A DNA stretch of 64,000 nucleotides from Cyanidioschyzon merolae (Eukaryota): assembly GCA_000091205.1 (NCBI GenBank), contig AP006490.2. One strand, written 5' to 3'. The position numbers were made by a program, and so were the translations under genes. The notes beneath the pieces are model-generated. The model was not told the DNA's origin and did not search any database. It worked only from the letters and a program-made list of their open reading frames with translations. Of the stretch, positions 54,788 to 64,000 are shown in pieces; the stretch's first letter is position 1, and each line of letters starts with the position of its first letter.

Positions 54788-55863
54788 ATGCAAGCTCTTT
54801 TCGTTTCTGTTCCGCTGTACCAGGAAAGACATATTGTTTGCGCGCGCGCTGCAACCCGAGCACCGTTCCTGCTGCGTACGCATCGTGACGGTTACTTCGC
54901 AGCTGTACATCGTCACCATTGCCAGCATCCGCTGCCCTTCGTGGTGCAGCGTTCGCCTGCGGTGCGCAGGCATCGTATGCCGCATCTTCGTATGGGTCCG
55001 AAGCAGTCGCAGATCGCCGTCATCACTGGCGCGTCCTCTGGGGTCGGTCTGTATGCAGCTCCCGCTCTGATCAACAAGGGCAACTGGCACATCGTCATGG
55101 CATTTCGTGACATCGACCTCGTGGAGCGCGCAGCAAACAGCGTAAACCTTCTAAAGGACGCCTATACCGTGCTGCATTGTGTTATGGCTGATTTCGCCTC
55201 TGTGTTGAAGTTTGTGAGAGAGCTGTCAAGTGTGGCGCGCGTCGATCACCTGGATACCCTGATCTGCAATGCCGCAATCTGGCATCCGCCGGACAAGAAA
55301 CGGCGTTTCACGGTGGACGGCATCGAGGAAACCATGCAGGTATGCCATCTGAGCCATTTGCTTCTATGTCGGGAGCTGTTGCCGAAGCTGAAAATATCGC
55401 GCAGGCGCATTGTGTTTCTGACGACTCAGACACACTCGCCGAATTCGCTACCGGGAAAGATCCCCCGCAGGCTCGTCTCGGGGATTCGTCTAGTCTAGCC
55501 GCGGGGCTTGGTCCGCAGACGACAGGCATGGTAGAAAGTGGTCCGTTTGAGCCCACAAAAGCCTACAAAGACGCCAAAGCCGCGAACGTGTTATCAATGA
55601 AGGCGCTCGGTCATTGATACGGCCGCGACGGTGTGACCTCTGTGACGATTTTCCCGGGATGTGTCGCCAACAGCAACCTCTTCCGCGAAAAGCGTGGCTG
55701 GTTCCGCTACATATTCTTCCCGATTCATCAGAAGTACATCACTCGGCAATACGTTCCCAATGATGAGGCCGGACGCCGTGAAGCCGAAGTGGCGACCCAG
55801 GGACAGTTCTCGGACTCGGGCTCGTATTATCAGTGGCGTGGCAAATATACGTATGGGGGATAG
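54788..55863 (+). pseudogene. POR: light-dependent NADPH:protochlorophyllide oxidoreductase (POR, SDR family) homolog disrupted by a frameshift (~55420-55440, within acacac) and an in-frame TGA (55615-55617)
   Basis: Three consecutive ORFs (54788-55498 frame 2; 55342-55617 frame 1; 55633-55863 frame 1) together are collinear with plant/algal POR: IAVITGASSGVGL...WHIVMAFRD (GASSGLGL..WHVIMACRD); TLICNAAIW..P..FT.DG.E; ...LGDSSSLAAGL...FEPTKAYKDAKAANVLSMKALGH*YGRDGVTSVTIFPGCVANSNLFREK...FPIHQKYITRQYVPNDEAGRR ([68 protein letters not shown]). TGA sits where POR has Arg (CGA). Confidence 0.7.
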
Positions 55864-56526
55864 AAGTCCGAACCGCACGTTATTGAACCAACGTACGAAA
55901 TCGACAAGGCAGATCAGCTTTACGAACTGAGTCTTGATCTGATCGACCAGGCGTTACGGAGGCGAGGCCTCAAGTCGACTATCTTGGCCCCTGTCTAAGG
56001 TTTGTTAGTGGTGAATATGGGATGCGCCTTCGAAGCGCAGACCGCTGCGTCGAGGACGCATGTGGGAGCAACAGCGTAACGATGAAACGGCACCCCACTG
56101 TCACGATCGGATAGTGATCGGGTGAAAGGGCACTCCTCCTGATGTGGTGAGCCAAAATTGCTTCGCAAGTCATAAAGCGTACTGCAGTAGTGATTAATAT
56201 AGCTATAGCTATGAGCTATTTCGCATCGAATGCGCCAGAGACTGCCAACTGTGGTCGTTCAAGAGGGCAGAGCGTGTTTATTTGGGTAATCTGTAACTCT
56301 TTTTGCCATAAAGGATACGGCAATAGAAGCGCACTTGCAGACGTTTGAAAAATCTGTGGGTATTCGATATCAAAGTGGGTCAACGGGCGTGGATTAATGA
56401 AAGCTCGGCAGTGAATGCTCCAGCAAGATATGGTGCATTGAACGAATCCGACCCAAGGATTGTACCAGGCGCTAGCTATGGGTCAGCATTCTGGAACAAC
56501 ATTGAGACTAATCCGATCATATTTGG

Positions 56527-57657
56527 TTGATTTGGATGTTCAAACACGCTTGCAGTGACTTTCTCAATGATGTGTTTGCATTGAGGAAAGCATTCCCTAC
56601 TCCAACACCAAAAACTTCGCGGACGCCTACCACCATCTGCTCCAATGAGCTCTGCGGATCTCCAGGACAGTGCATCAACCAGGACGCTTACGAGCAAGTC
56701 GGGTGCTGCTTCAACTCCCAGACGAACGCGTGCACCCTGAAGAGCGTCTCAGCGGCCTGCAGCGCTGTTCCAGTGACGCAGCGCGTCCCCTGCGGCTGGA
56801 GCTACATCTACCCTGACGATTGCACTGCGATACCGGGATGCTGCTGGCAGCCAACAGCGAACGGCATCCTCGCGCCCTGGTGCTACTACGACATCAACCA
56901 TGCACCCCAGGCTTCTGTAGCGTTGCAGGAGGTGCAGGCACCGGTTCCCCTCTGCCCGTCACCGGGAGCGCAGCGCCAGCCGTGCGGCAACGCGGGTATC
57001 AACCAGTTTACCTGCTATGCCCAGGGCTGCTGCTACGACTCGCAGGCGCAGAACCAGTGGGTGCAGAACGGCAAGCAGCAGTGCGACTTTGCGTCGAACC
57101 CGTACTGCTTCCAGCCCGAGAAGACGTGCGCGGTGGGTGAGTTTGAGCGCCAGCCGTGCACGAACGCGGTGAATCACAACCAGCAGCTGACCAATAACAT
57201 CAACAACAACCAGTTTGTGCGTCTGCTGAACACGCTTCTGTACGGGGAGCAGCACGGGACGCAGCGCACGAGCTACGCGCCGCAGCAGTGCCTGGAGGCG
57301 GGTTGCTGCCTGGGGCTTTGCAACGAGTGCTGCCAGCCGGTTACTGAGAACGTGTGCCAGACCTACGGGTACGTCTCGAACTCGCTGAGCGGCACGACCG
57401 GCAACGTATCGAACTCGAGCTATATTCCGTGTGGCCCGGAGTGCTGCAACGCCGAGATAGAGAACTGTACGTACAACCCGTTCAGCAACAGCAATAACCT
57501 GCGACAACAGCAGCAGCAGCAACAGGTGCTGTTGCCGTCATTCTGTGTATGCAAGGACCCTACAAAGCAGTGCGGGACGTACCTGATCGCTTCGGATAAC
57601 CTTGTGAACAAGGTGCGTTGTTGCCGCTCTGGCGAGGAGTGCATCAACAACGAGTGA
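56527..57657 (+). CDS. Cys-rich protein with 3-4 trefoil (P-domain)-like repeats, Q/N-rich; probable secreted/extracellular glycan-binding protein (N-terminus/signal may lie upstream or be mis-called)
   Basis: Repeats with trefoil spacing R-x2-C-G-x8-C-x4-CC-[FWY]: RVPCGWSYIYPDDCTAIPGCCWQPTANGILAPWCYYD; RQPCGNAGINQFTCYAQGCCYDSQAQNQW (cf. TFF1 [34 protein letters not shown]); also VGCCFNSQTNAC and CLEAGCCLGLCNECC. Confidence 0.5.
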   Translation: MIWMFKHACSDFLNDVFALRKAFPTPTPKTSRTPTTICSNELCGSPGQCINQDAYEQVGCCFNSQTNACTLKSVSAACSAVPVTQRVPCGWSYIYPDDCTAIPGCCWQPTANGILAPWCYYDINHAPQASVALQEVQAPVPLCPSPGAQRQPCGNAGINQFTCYAQGCCYDSQAQNQWVQNGKQQCDFASNPYCFQPEKTCAVGEFERQPCTNAVNHNQQLTNNINNNQFVRLLNTLLYGEQHGTQRTSYAPQQCLEAGCCLGLCNECCQPVTENVCQTYGYVSNSLSGTTGNVSNSSYIPCGPECCNAEIENCTYNPFSNSNNLRQQQQQQQVLLPSFCVCKDPTKQCGTYLIASDNLVNKVRCCRSGEECINNE

Positions 57658-58398
57658 TTGTAGATTAGTCCCACACCGACTCCGAGTGCCATTATTGCGA
57701 CTGCAACTGCGTCTCCAAGTGCGTCATATTGGTGTCGACCACAACGCATGCCTCAGCAAGTGGTTCAGTATGAACCACTGCGTTGACGCCAGCTATCTGT
57801 ACAGCCCCGCGCGCGACCATAGAACTAAGAATATGTTTCAGTTATTGATATATTCATTCCATGAGGATCTTAGTTGTGCAATATAGTTCGCACATGCATG
57901 CACGCAACCTTCCAGTCCGGGTTGGCGGCCCATCATCCAATGTTGAGGGTGTCTGGACACCAAACTTCCCCCTAGACGGGATGCCAACAAATATGCAGAT
58001 GGCGTGCAGAAAGAGGGAGTTTTTCGTATTGCGTCATAGCGGGCCGGGTCCGAATGTGCGACGGGCATGCTATTAGACCTTTTGGGTGTTTGGACTCTGC
58101 ATGTGTATCTGAAACACGACTGCGGCGTAGAATGTTAACTTGCATTGCCATTACGAGAACGCCTTCATGAAACTAGATAGCAGACGCTGCAAAATATCTT
58201 TGTCCGTTTATTATAGAAATGTCCTGTTGTGGGAGCGCCGTGCGCAGATCTGCGTCATTCAGAAGGCGGTGCTTGACGCGCTTCCGTGCTGCTTACCTCA
58301 GAATACTTCGTTGAGCCTGGTGGTGGTAAGGACGGAGACAGCAGTGACAACAGTACCAGCAGCTGGAGTCTCTCCTATCCCTGGAGATTCTAAGCAAC

Positions 58399-60678
58399 TT
58401 GTTTCTCTCAGTGGCGCTTTCTTTTCACTGGTGCAGAACCTCTTTCGTATCCCATATGCGAAGAAGATATTTTTCTATATTGAGACTCCTGGTGGTAGTA
58501 TTGGTTGTGTCGGGCACACACACAGTTCGTGGAGTTTTGTCCTCCGAAGATACTTTTTTATGGACCTGGATCGGTGGTAGTAACTCTACCAGCAGTTCAG
58601 GTAGCTACGGTGTTCAGGGTGTGCCAAACACCAGCAACGTGCCTCCGGCGCGGTACGGTGCGGCCTTCTGGACCGGCGCTGACGGGGTGCTCTGGTTGTT
58701 TGGTGGTGGCAGCGACTTGAGAGACGTCTTCGGTGATCTCTGGAACTACAATCTAAGCACGTTCTCTTGGACCTGGGTTGGAGGCTCTGCATCCCTCAAC
58801 TCTGGAGGGGTATACGGCTCCCGCGGAGTTCCCAACAAGAGCAACTATCCGCCTTCGAGGACGGAATCCGCTGCTTGGAGTGACAGCAACGGAAACCTTT
58901 GGTTATATGGAGGCCATAATTTGAACTCGGGCTATAGTGATATGTGGATGTATAATGTATCGTCGGGCGAGTGGACATGGGAGCAGGGATCCAACAAGAC
59001 CAATGTTCCCCCGACATATGGTACTCTTGGGAACTCGTCTTCAAGCAACACGCCTGGCGCTCGTTTCCAACCCGCGACCTGGGTTGGCCTAGATGGCCAG
59101 TTTTATCTCTTTGCCGGATCTAGTCCTAATGGTACGTATTACGGTGACTTGTGGCAGTACAACACAGTGACCAACGAATGGAGCTGGATAGGTGGCACTC
59201 AACAGCAGATTCCCTCTGGAAGCTATGGTGCGTTTCGCCAGGCATCGCCGAGCAATTATCCCGCTGGACGTCTCGGAGCCACATCGTGGCGAGACCTTGA
59301 TGGGAACTTTTGGCTCTTTAGCGGTTACGGACAGATTGACGGAAATGGCGGCTCTCTGAATGATTTATGGCTGTACAATGTCAGCTCCAAAGAATGGACT
59401 TGGATGTCTGGAAATGACAGTGTTGGTTCGGATGGGGCAGTATACGGCGAGAAAGGAGTGCCGTCATCGAGCAACACTCCGGGGTACAGGTCCTCTTCCT
59501 CTGGATTTGTAGACTCGTCAAACACTCTGTATCTCTTCGGTGGTTATTCACCCGGTTTCTGCAACGACCTGTGGACGTTCAATACTACGAGTCTTGAATG
59601 GACTTGGGTAGACGGTGACAATACAACGGATGGAGCCTATAGCTACGGCGAGCTTAACAAGACAAGCAATACAACGCTTCCACCTCCGCGAGCTTATGCA
59701 GTTCTTTGGAATACCGATCAAAACGACCCGGTCCTGTTCGGAGGCGTAGGCAACTCAGGTTCCCTTAACGACCTCTTCACATTATACATCGCAACACCGA
59801 CGCCTACACCGACACCAACACCGACACCAACACCGACACCAACACCAACACCAACACCGACGGCATCACCGACGCCCTCCGTTACTGCACCCCCGTCGGC
59901 AACGACAAATGTGACGCAGACCGCTGTAGGCGAAGGCTCTGCGGTCTGCTTCCCCGCGGATGCCCCGGTGCTGATCGATGGTCTGGGCAACCATCTGCAG
60001 ATAAGCGAGCTTCGATCAGGTATGGCCGTAATGGGCGTCAATGGGCGCGGGCAACTGGTCGAAGATAGTGTACTAGGATGGTTGCATAACGAGGCCGGCG
60101 CTACTGCGGAGATTCTGGCGATCAAGACGCTTTCCGGAAAGCAGCTGCGTCTGACGAGACAGCATCTGGTATATCGAATGATCGAACACTCTAGAGACTT
60201 TTACGGTATGACGACCGCTTTCTCGTGTATTTCACAGAAGCAGCAGCAGCAGCATCAGCAGGAGCACATACGTCAGAGCCTTGAGCTGGGTACCTCCGCC
60301 GTTGAGGCAGTTTTCGCGGAAGATATCCGCGTGGGCGACGCTCTGCTGGACGTTGCTGCGCATCTGCCGGACCCCGTGGTGGCAATCGAGACAGTAGTTA
60401 CGCACAATGGTCTCTATGCGCCGTTGACTCGCTCAGGGCGCCTTGTGGTCGACGGTGTTCTCGTGAGCTGCTACGGGACGTACGCATCGCATGCCGCGGC
60501 ACATGCTGTGTTGTGGCCTGCGCGGGTCGATGCTCTGCGCAAGATATGGACATCAGGGCTCGGCACAGAGGGTATTGTGGGTATCATGCCATACGCAGAA
60601 AGGCTCTATCACGTTTGGACGAGTGCAGCACGTGTTTTAACGGAGGCTCGCGTAAGTGTTGTAGTTGCAGCCTGCTGA
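58399..60678 (+). CDS. Hog-type protein: signal peptide, Kelch/galactose-oxidase-like beta-propeller (~6 blades), (TP)n linker, C-terminal Hedgehog/intein (Hint) autoprocessing domain
   Basis: Signal-like LRLLVVVLVVSGTHTVRG (Met at 58456). Kelch blades: GAAFWTGADGVLWLFGG...DLWNYN; SAAWSDSNGNLWLYGG...DMWMYN; ATWVGLDGQFYLFAG...DLWQYN; TSWRDLDGNFWLFSGY...DLWLYN etc. TPTPTPTPTPTPTPTPTPT linker. Hint: CFPADAPVLIDGLGNHLQISELRSGMAVMG...LRLTRQHLVY...VVTHNGLYAPLTRSGRLVVDGVLVSCYGTYASHAAAHAVLWPAR (cf. Hh C-terminal CF.G...V....G.....L..GD.VL......LT..H..F...V.T..G.IVVN.V.ASCYA...H..AH.AFAP.R). Confidence 0.75.
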   Translation: MFLSVALSFHWCRTSFVSHMRRRYFSILRLLVVVLVVSGTHTVRGVLSSEDTFLWTWIGGSNSTSSSGSYGVQGVPNTSNVPPARYGAAFWTGADGVLWLFGGGSDLRDVFGDLWNYNLSTFSWTWVGGSASLNSGGVYGSRGVPNKSNYPPSRTESAAWSDSNGNLWLYGGHNLNSGYSDMWMYNVSSGEWTWEQGSNKTNVPPTYGTLGNSSSSNTPGARFQPATWVGLDGQFYLFAGSSPNGTYYGDLWQYNTVTNEWSWIGGTQQQIPSGSYGAFRQASPSNYPAGRLGATSWRDLDGNFWLFSGYGQIDGNGGSLNDLWLYNVSSKEWTWMSGNDSVGSDGAVYGEKGVPSSSNTPGYRSSSSGFVDSSNTLYLFGGYSPGFCNDLWTFNTTSLEWTWVDGDNTTDGAYSYGELNKTSNTTLPPPRAYAVLWNTDQNDPVLFGGVGNSGSLNDLFTLYIATPTPTPTPTPTPTPTPTPTPTPTASPTPSVTAPPSATTNVTQTAVGEGSAVCFPADAPVLIDGLGNHLQISELRSGMAVMGVNGRGQLVEDSVLGWLHNEAGATAEILAIKTLSGKQLRLTRQHLVYRMIEHSRDFYGMTTAFSCISQKQQQQHQQEHIRQSLELGTSAVEAVFAEDIRVGDALLDVAAHLPDPVVAIETVVTHNGLYAPLTRSGRLVVDGVLVSCYGTYASHAAAHAVLWPARVDALRKIWTSGLGTEGIVGIMPYAERLYHVWTSAARVLTEARVSVVVAAC
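59797..59862 (+). repeat. (ACACCG/ACACCA)n coding repeat giving a (Thr-Pro)n linker
   Basis: acaccgacgcctacaccgacaccaacaccgacaccaacaccgacaccaacaccaacaccaacaccgacg read directly. Confidence 0.9.
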
Positions 60679-63600: not shown

Positions 63601-64000
63601 TGGGTACGACGGGAACACAATTCGACAAGATTTTAAGCAGAAATATATCGAAAATAACATAAAGAAAGAATTTTCTTTGTTCGTATAAAATATTTGCGTT
63701 ACAATGGAGACGACCTGGCACCGATAAAGCAGCATTTAAGTACTGTGAGATGTTGAGAGAAAAAAAAAGAAAACAAAAAATGGTGAAGAACGACAAACAC
63801 GAAAGCAACACAAGCAAGGGCGCGATTCAGACCACGCGCGACGGCCGGGGCCCAAAACATAGGTAACGACGAGGCGGTCACATTGATATGCATCGAGAGA
63901 CCTGCGCGTACTGGAGTCTCCGAATGGCCACCCGCAGGACTCTGATGATAAGGATTCCTCTCGGCTCAATTGCTAGAGACATTACTGGGGCAATGGGGGG

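Follow-up and report, generated by a model that had tools for sequence, protein, structure and literature searches.

CMH282C, a trefoil gene at the right end of Cyanidioschyzon merolae chromosome 8, is very probably a truncated Kelch+Trefoil copy

Towards one end of a 64,000-nucleotide stretch of Cyanidioschyzon merolae DNA (contig AP006490.2; hereafter, the window), an open frame of 376 codons on the + strand (56527-57657) encodes a Cys-rich protein with repeats that resemble those of the vertebrate trefoil factors (TFFs). This locus raises the question of whether the frame represents a stand-alone, extracellular multi-trefoil protein that may act together with the co-oriented Kelch-Hint (Hog) gene downstream, as the first-pass annotation proposed, or whether it originated in another way.

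Gene identity and chromosomal setting

The open frame is certainly CMH282C of C. merolae 10D, a gene that has already been annotated and published; its coding sequence starts at ATG 56536 and its product has 373 aa (Table 1). The first-pass annotation regarded such a protein as unusual, but the subtelomeric Kelch/Trefoil/Hint (K/T/H) family of Cyanidiales to which it belongs is the subject of three publications (Nozaki 2007, PMC1955436; Cho 2023, PMC9812998; a 2026 Plant Cell paper, PMC13353863), and the name "similar to trefoil factor" dates from the C. merolae genome papers, so that the value of the locus as a discovery is small. Data Set S8 of PMC13353863 classes CMH282C as "KTH variants: T", without a signal peptide, and gives the gene order CMH278C-CMH282C-CMH283C. 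The published tables, in which CMH282C is simply a "T" variant, are silent on the Kelch-blade relic, the frameshift-derived start and the lost terminal Cys. What is new here is that CMH282C is not a designed stand-alone protein, as seen from this relic, the shifted start, the lost Cys and a mosaic pattern of divergence.

Five proteins of the window match 10D chromosome 8 proteins exactly, and the window forms the right end of that chromosome (8R). CMH282C, the last gene but one before the 8R telomere, adjoins CMH283C, with about 6.3-7.5 kb between it and the end of the chromosome. The telomere repeat unit is of the type given in PMC1955436, and no two tandem units occur in the window, which stops after the first. 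Nozaki (2007, PMC1955436) placed 8R among the ends with PH elements and reported that chromosome termini carry T, P and H genes. In agreement with the PH element of 8R, the window has the order P-T-H. The intact P gene of the homologous copy L005 scores 310 bits against the light-dependent protochlorophyllide reductase model TIGR01289, while the window copy lacks one nucleotide in a C-run at 55463 relative to copies L001, L004 and L005; a sequencing error cannot be fully excluded at this run, and the translation of the window copy has no exact entry in the protein collection. On the other side of the trefoil gene, CMH283C carries Pfam Kelch families and a Hint domain (E=1e-31) and shares 91% and 88% identity with two 10D entries named "similar to hedgehog protein".

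The spacing of about 740 bp and the shared orientation reported in the first pass hold: there are 741 bp from the trefoil frame to the ORF boundary at 58399, and 798 bp to the ATG at 58456. The proposal that the two genes act together fares worse, as their adjacency is part of a repeated subtelomeric PH element and not evidence of a functional pair. In related genomes, the P-T-H order recurs on three metagenome contigs, but the homologue in Cyanidium has no Hog neighbour. The two genes also differ in expression: according to Data Set S8 (PMC13353863), CMH282C is found at about 25-71 TPM in all stages (with possible cross-mapping among paralogues that are 90-95% identical), whereas CMH283C reaches 527-629 TPM in 10D haploids but only 7-8 TPM in diploids. 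CMH282C also differs in this respect from most TFF-like members of the family, which are diploid-biased.

Table 1. Features of the trefoil locus and its surroundings, in positions of the window
Feature	Position	Strand	Evidence
P gene copy of PH element, light-dependent protochlorophyllide-reductase-like SDR, frameshifted pseudogene	54788..55925	+	Pfam adh_short, E=7e-15
Relic of last Kelch propeller blade; frame differs from trefoil ORF, ends in TGA 56528-56530	56327..56530	+	tblastn
CMH282C (BAM79920.1 / XP_005536206.1), "similar to trefoil factor"	56536..57657	+	exact-sequence match
1-nt deletion, shifts Kelch frame into trefoil frame	56548..56549	+	four-way alignment
Thr/Pro linker remnant AFPTPTPKTSRTPTTI (core FPTPTPKTSRTPTT, 56593-56634)	56590..56637	+	alignments to Hog junction and L003 linker
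Module 0, short trefoil-like 6-Cys module	56638..56733	+	alignment to relatives
Module 1, canonical trefoil domain	56758..56883	+	Pfam 46.0 bits (scanned alone); TFF1-3 alignments; Foldseek top matches TFF2, TFF3, TFF1
Module 2, trefoil domain with long third loop	56953..57108	+	Pfam 29.4 bits (scanned alone); alignments
Module 3, trefoil-like	57127..57330	+	alignment to relatives
C-terminal Cys-rich region, no known family	57355..57654	+	no Pfam match
TGA at last conserved Cys codon, TAG at 57661, relic of TPTPS and Ala/Ser/Thr-rich tail	57655..57790	+	four-way alignment
CMH283C: signal peptide, Kelch propeller, (TP)n linker, Hint (non-Hedgehog Hog protein)	58456..60678	+	Pfam
First telomere repeat unit AATGGGGGG; window ends there	63992..64000	+	read from sequence

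Trefoil modules and their fold

Modules 1 and 2 are true trefoil (P-type) domains, with a pattern that is far beyond chance. The Pfam Trefoil family (PF00088) matches the whole ORF in two stretches (E=4.5e-13, 49.3 bits) and, when the modules are scanned alone, each of the two exceeds the gathering cut-off of 21 bits. These results, together with the trefoil-like Cys layout of modules 0 and 3, bear out the earlier count of at least two trefoil repeats. The P-type pattern, taken as C-x(9,10)-C-x9-C-x(4,5)-C-C-x(10+)-C with an Arg two or three residues before CysII, a Gly after CysII and an aromatic residue before CysVI, is present in both: module 1 reads C-x10-C-x9-C-x5-CC-x12-C, with R-V-P-C-G and P-W-C, and module 2 reads C-x9-C-x9-C-x4-CC-x24-C, with R-Q-P-C-G and P-Y-C. 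In an alignment of 25 sequences, no variation is seen in 11 of the trefoil Cys columns or in either Gly column; three partial rows lack CysI of module 1.

The TFF1-like spacing noted in the first pass is likewise upheld, as modules 1 and 2 match TFF1-3 both in sequence and in fold. A phmmer search of PDB sequences returned TFF3 (6v1c, E=2e-5), porcine spasmolytic polypeptide/TFF2 and TFF1/pS2, as well as the trefoil domains of maltase-glucoamylase and sucrase-isomaltase. In the alignment with TFF3, the matched columns comprise the five Cys from CysII onwards, the Arg, the Gly that follows CysII and the Trp that precedes CysVI, and CysI of the query lies one column off that of TFF3. Against 1.84 billion representatives, phmmer found 81 proteins at E<=1e-3, and Trefoil was the only recurrent Pfam family in the matches that were scanned (37/37). 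Regarding the fold, an AlphaFold2 model of modules 1-2 (pLDDT 72) was compared with the PDB using Foldseek, and the top 19 matches were all TFF peptides or trefoil-bearing GH31 enzymes, for instance 1pos (probability 0.99), 6v1c (TM 0.64, rmsd 2.7 Å) and 6v1d (TM 0.67, rmsd 2.2 Å), with TM values normalised to the target; the small size of the domain makes for weak Foldseek E-values. The whole trefoil region of 341 aa, modelled with 11 close sequences, reached a pLDDT of 45 and was left out of the fold search.

The remaining modules resemble the Pfam model less closely. Module 0 has no Pfam match in the window, and its Cyanidium equivalent scores 22.3 bits for Trefoil; in CMH282C, its CysIII position is occupied by Tyr and a new Cys appears six residues upstream. 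Module 3, which contains an Asn/Gln-rich insertion of roughly 30 residues between CysII and CysIII, has no Pfam match either, and its Cyanidium equivalent reaches 14.4 bits (E=0.035). The Cys-rich region that follows has one Cys fewer in CMH282C (11) than in intact relatives (12), includes a poly-Gln run (57502-57525) whose length varies between copies, and shows only indels that are multiples of 3 nt. It is kept in a Cyanidium homologue (P0007) and occurs on its own in CDCA13G3550 (P0131).

Remnants at both ends of the frame

The product of CMH282C has Trefoil as its sole Pfam domain and, in this sense, the description as stand-alone is right. The description does not extend to the locus, as a disabled Kelch blade and a linker remnant (56327-56637) precede the trefoil modules. 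In a tblastn search, residues 390-462 of the CMH283C Hog protein match 56351-56569. In L001 and L004, the blade and the trefoil region share one frame; the TGA at 56528 is found only in the window and L005, as is the deletion at 56548-56549. A sequencing error was considered as the source of this frameshift and rejected, because L005, an independent assembly, has the same deletion. We also rejected the idea that the relic is a partial copy of the Kelch domain of the neighbouring Hog gene, because the last blade of a Cyanidiococcus Hog protein, P0019, resembles the intact blade of L001 more (40% identity, E=3e-18) than that of CMH283C does (28% identity, E=2e-8). Only one blade is left, as tblastn found no further Kelch-like sequence upstream of it. 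The linker remnant aligns with the LNDxFxL and TPTP junction of the Hog protein and with a 55-aa linker in a metagenome paralogue (L003); Thr/Pro/Ala-rich linkers joining the domains of this family have been described (PMC9812998).

The start codon of CMH282C exists only in the shifted frame, and the first 10 or so residues derive from the frameshifted Kelch blade. None of L005, L001 and L004 has an ATG in frame at the place of ATG 56536, and the corresponding ORFs of L001 and L005 contain no ATG at all. Additionally, it is doubtful that the product is extracellular, as was supposed. The highest mean Kyte-Doolittle value over any 9 of its first 40 residues is 0.97, which leaves no hydrophobic core, whereas the same measure gives 3.26 and 3.51 in relatives with a signal peptide; moreover, in Data Set S8 of PMC13353863, SignalP 6 is negative for CMH282C and positive for the K+T genes CMA001C and CMA142C. 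An upstream exon that might supply a signal peptide was sought in 55930-56326, where the only ATG ORF has 45 codons (MSYFASNAPETANCGR...) and no hydrophobic core.

Similar signs of decay are observed at the 3′ end. The last conserved Cys codon is TGA in the window, TGT in L004 and TGG in L001; the related proteins P0003, P0004, P0005 and P0007 read C-V/L-V at this Cys, and P0003-P0005 continue beyond it. CMH282C has also gained Cys that are peculiar to it: there is an extra one in module 2 (57082, Ser in all relatives) and two in the region of module 3 (codons 57319 and 57331), that is, three gains. In total, the protein has 39 Cys, an odd number, compared with 36 in intact relatives. Peptides spanning QQCDFASNPYCFQPEK, LGLCNECCQPVTENVCQTYGYVSNSLSGTTG or the N-terminus MFKHACSDFLNDVFALR are specific to CMH282C.

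Origin of the copy, alternative readings and known systems

A metagenome contig (L003) carries an intact Kelch+Trefoil (K+T) paralogue in which the end of the Kelch domain, a 55-aa T/S/P linker, the trefoil region (92% nucleotide identity to CMH282C) and an S/A/V/T tail share one frame, adjoining a telomere-like end. Considering this paralogue and the disabled blade and linker relic, we conclude that CMH282C is very probably, in origin, a truncated K+T gene; that it is now a transcribed, decaying remnant whose function has been lost is a reading that we favour with less assurance. Intact K+T proteins are secreted and consist of a signal peptide, a six-bladed Kelch propeller, a mucin-like Thr/Pro/Ser linker and then, as the C-terminal half, a trefoil region with four trefoil-type modules, a 12-Cys domain and a Ser/Ala/Thr-rich tail. 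They are expressed mostly in the cell-walled diploid stage and would be glycoproteins of the cell surface or wall that may bind or cross-link glycans through their disulfide-locked trefoil modules. CMH282C, by this account, has been truncated at its 5′ and 3′ ends; its single remaining blade is disabled by the stop codon and the 1-nt deletion, and its product, which has no signal peptide, would be unable to enter the ER. The similarity of the copy to its working paralogues would be maintained by ectopic recombination and gene conversion between chromosome ends.

The main point against decay is that the trefoil region of CMH282C still looks to be under constraint. A frame of 373 codons is still open; pairwise dN/dS is 0.21-0.30 in the trefoil region versus 0.7-1.1 in the blade relic; all of its indels are multiples of 3 nt, whereas those in the flanks are of 1-2 nt; and the codon changes unique to the window are eight non-synonymous and seven synonymous, whereas neutral evolution would give a ratio of about 3.7:1 (p=0.03). 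However, a dN/dS of about 0.25 was not accepted as conclusive proof of function, because the divergence is mosaic. Between the window and L005, 65/68 differing alignment columns fall within 56563-57385 (about 820 bp), while hardly any differences occur in the flanks (56315-56562 and 57386-57800); identity is 99.5% in the blade relic and 95.7% in the trefoil ORF. This mosaic points to gene conversion, and conversion from functional copies could be the source of the constraint signals, the transcripts and the open frame of CMH282C. A related protein, P0005, also shows an internal rearrangement that joins "GEQHGTQRT" to module 1.

The same evidence bears on the other explanations. We consider it unlikely that CMH282C is a functional, secreted stand-alone multi-trefoil protein of the extracellular matrix, possibly working with the neighbouring Hog protein. 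The open frame with real trefoil domains, the dN/dS, the in-frame indels and transcription would all suit it, and stand-alone secreted versions do exist, as Cyanidium caldarium CDCA10G3079 combines the same trefoil region with a signal peptide and a T/S/A linker, and a "T" variant with a signal peptide is on record for Cyanidiococcus; however, CMH282C has no signal peptide, begins with residues of a frameshifted blade from an ATG that is peculiar to it, has lost its last conserved Cys and is left with an odd Cys count, and both the expression data and the Hog-free Cyanidium locus speak against the pair. Under another explanation, the ORF would be the last exon of a larger, still functional Kelch+Trefoil gene, with the stop and the frameshift within an intron and a signal-peptide exon spliced on. 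A possible acceptor (ttgcag|acg, 56336-56341) is indeed in phase with the blade and is kept in L004 and L005, but it reads CAA instead of CAG in L001; the roughly 400 bp from the end of the P gene to the blade contain no Kelch-like or signal-peptide-like ORF; reading of the sequence revealed no GT-AG pair that bridges the TGA and the frameshift, removing the one and restoring the frame; and the blade relic evolves neutrally. C. merolae has only about 27 introns, and we regard this explanation as very improbable.

It is also improbable, in our opinion, that the relic has been kept as a silent donor or acceptor cassette that diversifies surface glycoproteins and is useful as sequence instead of as protein. 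The mosaic divergence with its tract of about 820 bp, the rearrangement in P0005 and the 12-24 K/T/H copies with variable linkers at chromosome ends (PMC9812998) agree with it, but mosaicism is expected at any chromosome end without a selected role, the direction of transfer is not evident, and the copies compared come from metagenomes of related strains, not from one genome. Somewhat less probable still is the general form of this proposal, a chromosome-end recombination system in which disabled K/T/H fragments serve to reshuffle the trefoil, linker and Kelch segments of surface glycoprotein genes; if true, it would loosely resemble the subtelomeric surface-antigen archives of parasites, and the patch of about 820 bp would be one exchange. 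Finally, that the Cys pattern belongs to another fold, such as hevein or EGF, or that the ORF is non-coding, is scarcely conceivable, and as far as modules 1 and 2 are concerned it has been refuted. Pfam matches are indeed lacking for modules 0 and 3 and for the last 100 residues of CMH282C, and the full-length model has low pLDDT, but Trefoil is the one family that Pfam detects at E<=10, whether the ORF is scanned entire or module by module (twice above threshold, with no hevein/chitin-binding or EGF match), the PDB matches in sequence and fold are TFF1-3, the homologue in another genus is 56% identical, and the indels are codon-periodic. CMH282C is best read as a truncated K+T copy with, probably, no secreted product, a status that affects the counts of "T-only" variants and the interpretation of RNA-seq data among near-identical subtelomeric paralogues.

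With the K/T/H family, CMH282C has in common the subtelomeric site, the Thr/Pro linker and the trefoil region of K+T genes, and it shares OrthoFinder group OG0000022 with CMA001C, CMA142C, CMR001C and others; unlike the intact K+T members, it is without a Kelch propeller, a signal peptide and the Ser/Ala/Thr tail. The Cyanidium caldarium "Trefoil factor" (CDCA10G3079, P0007) can be aligned over 93% of the ORF at 56% identity, and both proteins have the four trefoil-type modules and the C-terminal Cys-rich domain. By contrast with CMH282C, the signal peptide of CDCA10G3079 is followed by its T/S/A-rich linker, it has 36 Cys and its gene is not subtelomeric.

The vertebrate factors TFF1 (6v1d), TFF2 (1pos/1psp) and TFF3 (6v1c) show the same order of six Cys, the Arg before CysII, the Gly after it and the Trp before CysVI, and the Foldseek matches, which span 44-56 aligned columns, are 27-38% identical. 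TFFs, however, are small secreted peptides of one or two domains, a class of divalent lectins for GlcNAc-alpha-1,4-Gal that is defined by an N-terminal signal peptide, whereas CMH282C is a multi-module ORF of 373 aa that lacks one. In TFF3, the ligand is contacted by Asp20, before CysII (Asn in TFF1/2), and by Trp47, before CysVI (PMC7221086). In CMH282C, modules 1 and 2 both have Pro in front of CysII (Ala or Pro in Cyanidium), and CysVI is preceded by Trp in module 1 and by Tyr in module 2, so that CMH282C does not reproduce the ligand-contact side chains of the TFFs. Given the Pro at the position of Asp20, GlcNAc-alpha-1,4-Gal specificity is not expected, and any lectin activity of the intact family would probably differ in specificity from that of TFF3. 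The same P-type domain is found in GH31 glycosidases (GAA, MGAM, SI and a Piromyces GH31), with weak matches in sequence and fold; unlike these enzymes, CMH282C has no GH31 catalytic domain, and Pfam finds Trefoil alone. As judged from sequence, the algal modules are clearly homologous to the P-type domains of cnidarians, vertebrates and fungal GH31 enzymes and, therefore, convergence with the vertebrate TFFs seems less likely than shared ancestry or domain transfer.

Gene identity and trefoil domains

Translated from its first ATG (56536), the trefoil ORF exactly yields BAM79920.1/XP_005536206.1, 'similar to trefoil factor' (CMH282C), and the translations of five long window ORFs are identical to proteins of Cyanidioschyzon merolae strain 10D (CMH265C, CMH270C, the threonine dehydratase BAM79913, the photolyase BAM79915 and BAM79919). 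The terminal sequence is ...GGGGCAATGGGGGG, and it closes with one copy of the repeat unit of C. merolae telomeres (PMC1955436). Because of the exact matches and this unit, we place the window at the right end of chromosome 8; 8R is among the 'PH' element ends of Nozaki et al. 2007 (PMC1955436). Data Set S8 (PMC13353863) gives the order CMH278C (BAM79919), CMH282C, CMH283C, then chromosome 9, which, together with the exact sequence match, identifies the gene pair of the first-pass annotation as CMH282C and CMH283C. There, CMH282C, 'similar to trefoil factor', carries the entry 'KTH variants: T' and lacks a signal peptide, and CMH283C is 'similar to hedgehog protein' (Kelch+Hog, signal peptide present). 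No long ORF is found in the ~3.3 kb from the Hog stop (60678) to the telomere.

Features at the chromosome end
Feature	Coordinates	Strand	Remarks
P gene copy of the PH element	54788-55925	+	LPOR-like
Single Kelch blade	56327-56530		directly upstream of the trefoil ORF, different frame
Trefoil ORF	56527-57657	+	open frame
Module 0	56638-56733	+	C..C..C..CC..C layout kept
Module 1	56758-56883	+	Trefoil 46.0 bits, scanned singly
Module 2	56953-57108	+	Trefoil 29.4 bits, scanned singly
Module 3	57127-57330	+	C..C..C..CC..C layout kept
CMH283C	58456-60678	+	translated from ATG 58456
Telomere repeat unit AATGGGGGG	63992-64000		single unit, at window end

The trefoil (P-domain) repeats recognised in the first reading are confirmed by Pfam, phmmer and Foldseek alike, and the interpretation given to them holds in part. 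Trefoil (PF00088) is the sole Pfam family in the whole ORF (E=4.5e-13, 49.3 bits, two stretches). When each of the consecutive Cys-rich modules 0-3 was cut out and scanned singly, modules 1 and 2 both exceeded the gathering cut-off of 21 bits; modules 0 and 3 gave no Pfam match, and their Cyanidium equivalents scored 22.3 and 14.4 bits, respectively. The C-terminal 100 residues form an additional Cys-rich region that matched no known family in the Pfam module scan. Against PDB sequences, phmmer returned TFF3 (6v1c, E=2e-5), porcine spasmolytic polypeptide, TFF1/pS2 and the trefoil domains of maltase-glucoamylase and sucrase-isomaltase; the columns matched in TFF3 include the Arg, CysII-CysVI (numbering the six trefoil Cys in order), the Gly following CysII and the Trp preceding CysVI. 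In a 25-sequence alignment of modules 1-2, the trefoil Cys columns are nearly all invariant, and the AlphaFold2 model built from it (pLDDT 72) has TFF peptides or trefoil-bearing GH31 enzymes as its best 19 Foldseek matches in the PDB (probability 0.99 for 1pos; target-normalised TM 0.64-0.67 and rmsd 2.2-2.7 A against TFF3/TFF1). A poly-Gln run (57502-57525) and an Asn-rich stretch (at 57189) differ in length among copies by 3 or 6 nt and behave as microsatellite-like hot spots that stay in frame.

Both the gene and the family it belongs to were known before. At the chromosome ends of C. merolae, Nozaki et al. 2007 located genes for trefoil factor (T), NADPH:protochlorophyllide oxidoreductase (P) and hedgehog protein (H) (PMC1955436). 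Cho et al. 2023 counted 12-24 subtelomeric genes per Cyanidiales species with domains of the Kelch (K), trefoil (T) and Hint (H) types, in the combinations K, T, H, K+T and K+H, with a Thr/Pro/Ala linker between domains (PMC9812998). There are 15 TFF-like genes in C. merolae, 13 of them expressed mainly in the cell-walled diploid stage (PMC13353863, Plant Cell 2026), and several are induced in a nickel-stress study. Given the published annotation and these papers, the finding itself is already known; what is new here is the anatomy of CMH282C as a decayed K+T gene.

A probable truncated Kelch+Trefoil copy

Although Trefoil is the only Pfam family of the ORF, as a stand-alone multi-trefoil protein would have it, the Kelch-blade relic directly upstream points to a truncated K+T gene. 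In tblastn with the neighbouring Hog protein, 56351-56569 aligns to its last blade and 56563-56631 to its 'LNDLFTL + TPTP' junction. Blade, linker and trefoil region share one continuous frame in two metagenome contigs of related strains (L001 and L004), while the window and a third contig, L005, have in common a stop codon (TGA) at 56528 and the loss of 1 nt at 56548. The annotated ATG sits in the shifted frame and, consequently, the ~10 N-terminal residues (MFKHAC...) do not represent ancestral protein; its equivalent in L005 is thrown out of frame by an extra 2-nt deletion, and the proteins of L001 and L005 lack an upstream in-frame Met. A fourth contig, L003, which ends in telomere-like repeats, aligns to the window in the trefoil region only (92% nucleotide identity). 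Its single frame runs from '...GHLNDAFALSETF' through a 55-residue T/S/P/A linker, four modules and the C-terminal Cys domain to 'CVVISPTPTPSP...' and a Ser/Ala/Val/Thr tail. This order is the intact K+T layout, from which CMH282C very probably derives by truncation. At the 3′ side, the terminal Cys codon is TGA in the window and L005, TGT (Cys) in L004 and TGG in L001, and Cys is kept in L003-type copies and Cyanidium; TAG follows the TGA two codons on, before a recognisable TPTPS tail remnant. We thus regard it as very probable that CMH282C is a truncated K+T copy. The idea that the relic was copied from the CMH283C propeller was rejected, as the intact blade is closer to the last blade of a Cyanidiococcus Hog protein (40% identity, E=3e-18) than to that of CMH283C (28%).

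Constraint, decay and the neighbouring genes

Several observations look like constraint on the trefoil region. Pairwise dN/dS is 0.21-0.30 there versus 0.7-1.1 in the blade relic, indels are of 3 or 6 nt inside it and of 1-2 nt in the flanks, and codon changes unique to the window comprise 8 non-synonymous and 7 synonymous ones (p=0.03 vs neutrality). These signs are no proof of selection on CMH282C, because divergence is mosaic: identity to L005 is 99.5% in the blade relic, 98.5% in the tail relic and 95.7% in the trefoil ORF, with 65 of the 68 differing alignment columns within 56563-57385. Judged from the alignment, this is the pattern of a putative gene-conversion or recombination tract from another paralogue, and such an imported tract would have inherited its low dN/dS from a functional donor.

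Signs of decay are also seen. CMH282C has 39 Cys versus 36 in intact relatives: it lacks the terminal Cys, CysIII of module 0 is Tyr, four Cys were gained inside the trefoil region (three unique to this copy: S->C, G->C and F->C) and the 39th lies in the frameshift-derived N-terminus. The putatively extracellular location proposed earlier is made doubtful by Data Set S8 (no signal peptide) and by the first 40 residues, where 9-residue Kyte-Doolittle means reveal no hydrophobic core (peak 0.97, versus 3.26 in the Cyanidium protein and 3.51 in CMH283C). CMH282C is probably a transcribed gene remnant that is unable to enter the secretory pathway and whose likeness to its paralogues is maintained by ectopic recombination; on balance, we lean towards its being non-functional.

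The suggestion that CMH282C and CMH283C act together found no evidence of a functional unit. P-T-H order recurs on L001, L004 and L005 (84.6-93.5% nucleotide identity to the window), but the Cyanidium homologue, flanked by genes for a NusG/KOW-like protein and a DNA methylase, has no Hog neighbour, and Cyanidium has no K+H genes (PMC9812998). Expression differs as well, CMH283C reaching 527-629 TPM in the 10D haploid, 45-46 in the MS1 haploid and 7-8 in the diploid, against 63-71, 35-45 and 25-30 for CMH282C (Data Set S8, PMC13353863). That the two genes are neighbours is a feature of the repeated element at chromosome ends. The P copy of this element is frameshifted in the window, another sign of decay (a C-run at 55463 is one base shorter than in all three related contigs; the intact counterpart in L005 reaches 310 bits on TIGR01289), and is probably a pseudogenised copy of CMG217C, the expressed POR gene on 7R; the published table (Data Set S8, PMC13353863) contains no CMH279-281 proteins. 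The exact CMH283C sequence from its ATG was not found in the protein collection, though BAM79921.1 exists, and the deposited CDS may have different boundaries. The CMH283C (TP)n linker, from ~59794, has 13 TP units and is longer than in two other retrieved 10D Hog proteins.

Family role and relationship to known trefoil proteins

Signal peptide, propeller, mucin-like linker, disulfide-locked trefoils and expression in the walled diploid stage suggest that intact family members would be secreted cell-surface or wall glycoproteins, whose trefoil modules may bind or cross-link glycans. Likeness to TFF lectins is limited at the residue level: in TFF3, Asp20, which immediately precedes CysII, and Trp47, which immediately precedes CysVI, contact GlcNAc-alpha-1,4-Gal (PMC7221086), whereas in the algal modules Pro precedes CysII and the Trp is retained in module 1 only.

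Among 1.84 billion representatives, phmmer gave 81 matches at E<=1e-3, just five of which, the family proper, lie below 1e-30. One of these, a Cyanidium protein, matches mainly the C-terminal Cys domain. The Cyanidium homologue CDCA10G3079 (56% identity to the trefoil ORF) was singled out by Cho et al. 2023 as trefoil-only and non-subtelomeric (PMC9812998). The metagenome protein P0005 starts with 'GEQHGTQRT' fused straight to module 1, an internal rearrangement between modules 3 and 1, and in P0008 the C-terminal Cys domain is fused to C2 and ribosomal-L39-like sequence; each is either a chimera of assembly or a genuine recombinant copy from a subtelomere. In Cyanidium caldarium CDCA13G3550 (174 aa, 51% identity), the stretch that extends from the module 2 end across the 12-Cys C-terminal domain is present without N-terminal modules 0-2, an arrangement by which this domain may be an independent, uncharacterised module.

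Trefoil is the only recurrent Pfam family in all 37 distant matches scanned; stand-alone multi-trefoil proteins are therefore common in sequence space, and CMH282C, already annotated, is less unusual than had been thought. TFFs outside Cyanidiophyceae have been said to occur in vertebrates only, and convergence was suggested (PMC13353863). By contrast, the algal modules match P-type domains of cnidarian (Clytia, E=7e-25, the lowest value), amphibian (newt), fish (pipefish) and fungal GH31 (Piromyces) proteins. At the sequence level, the algal domain is homologous to the P-type domain of animals and fungi, and shared ancestry or transfer fits better than convergence, domain homology being the simpler reading.
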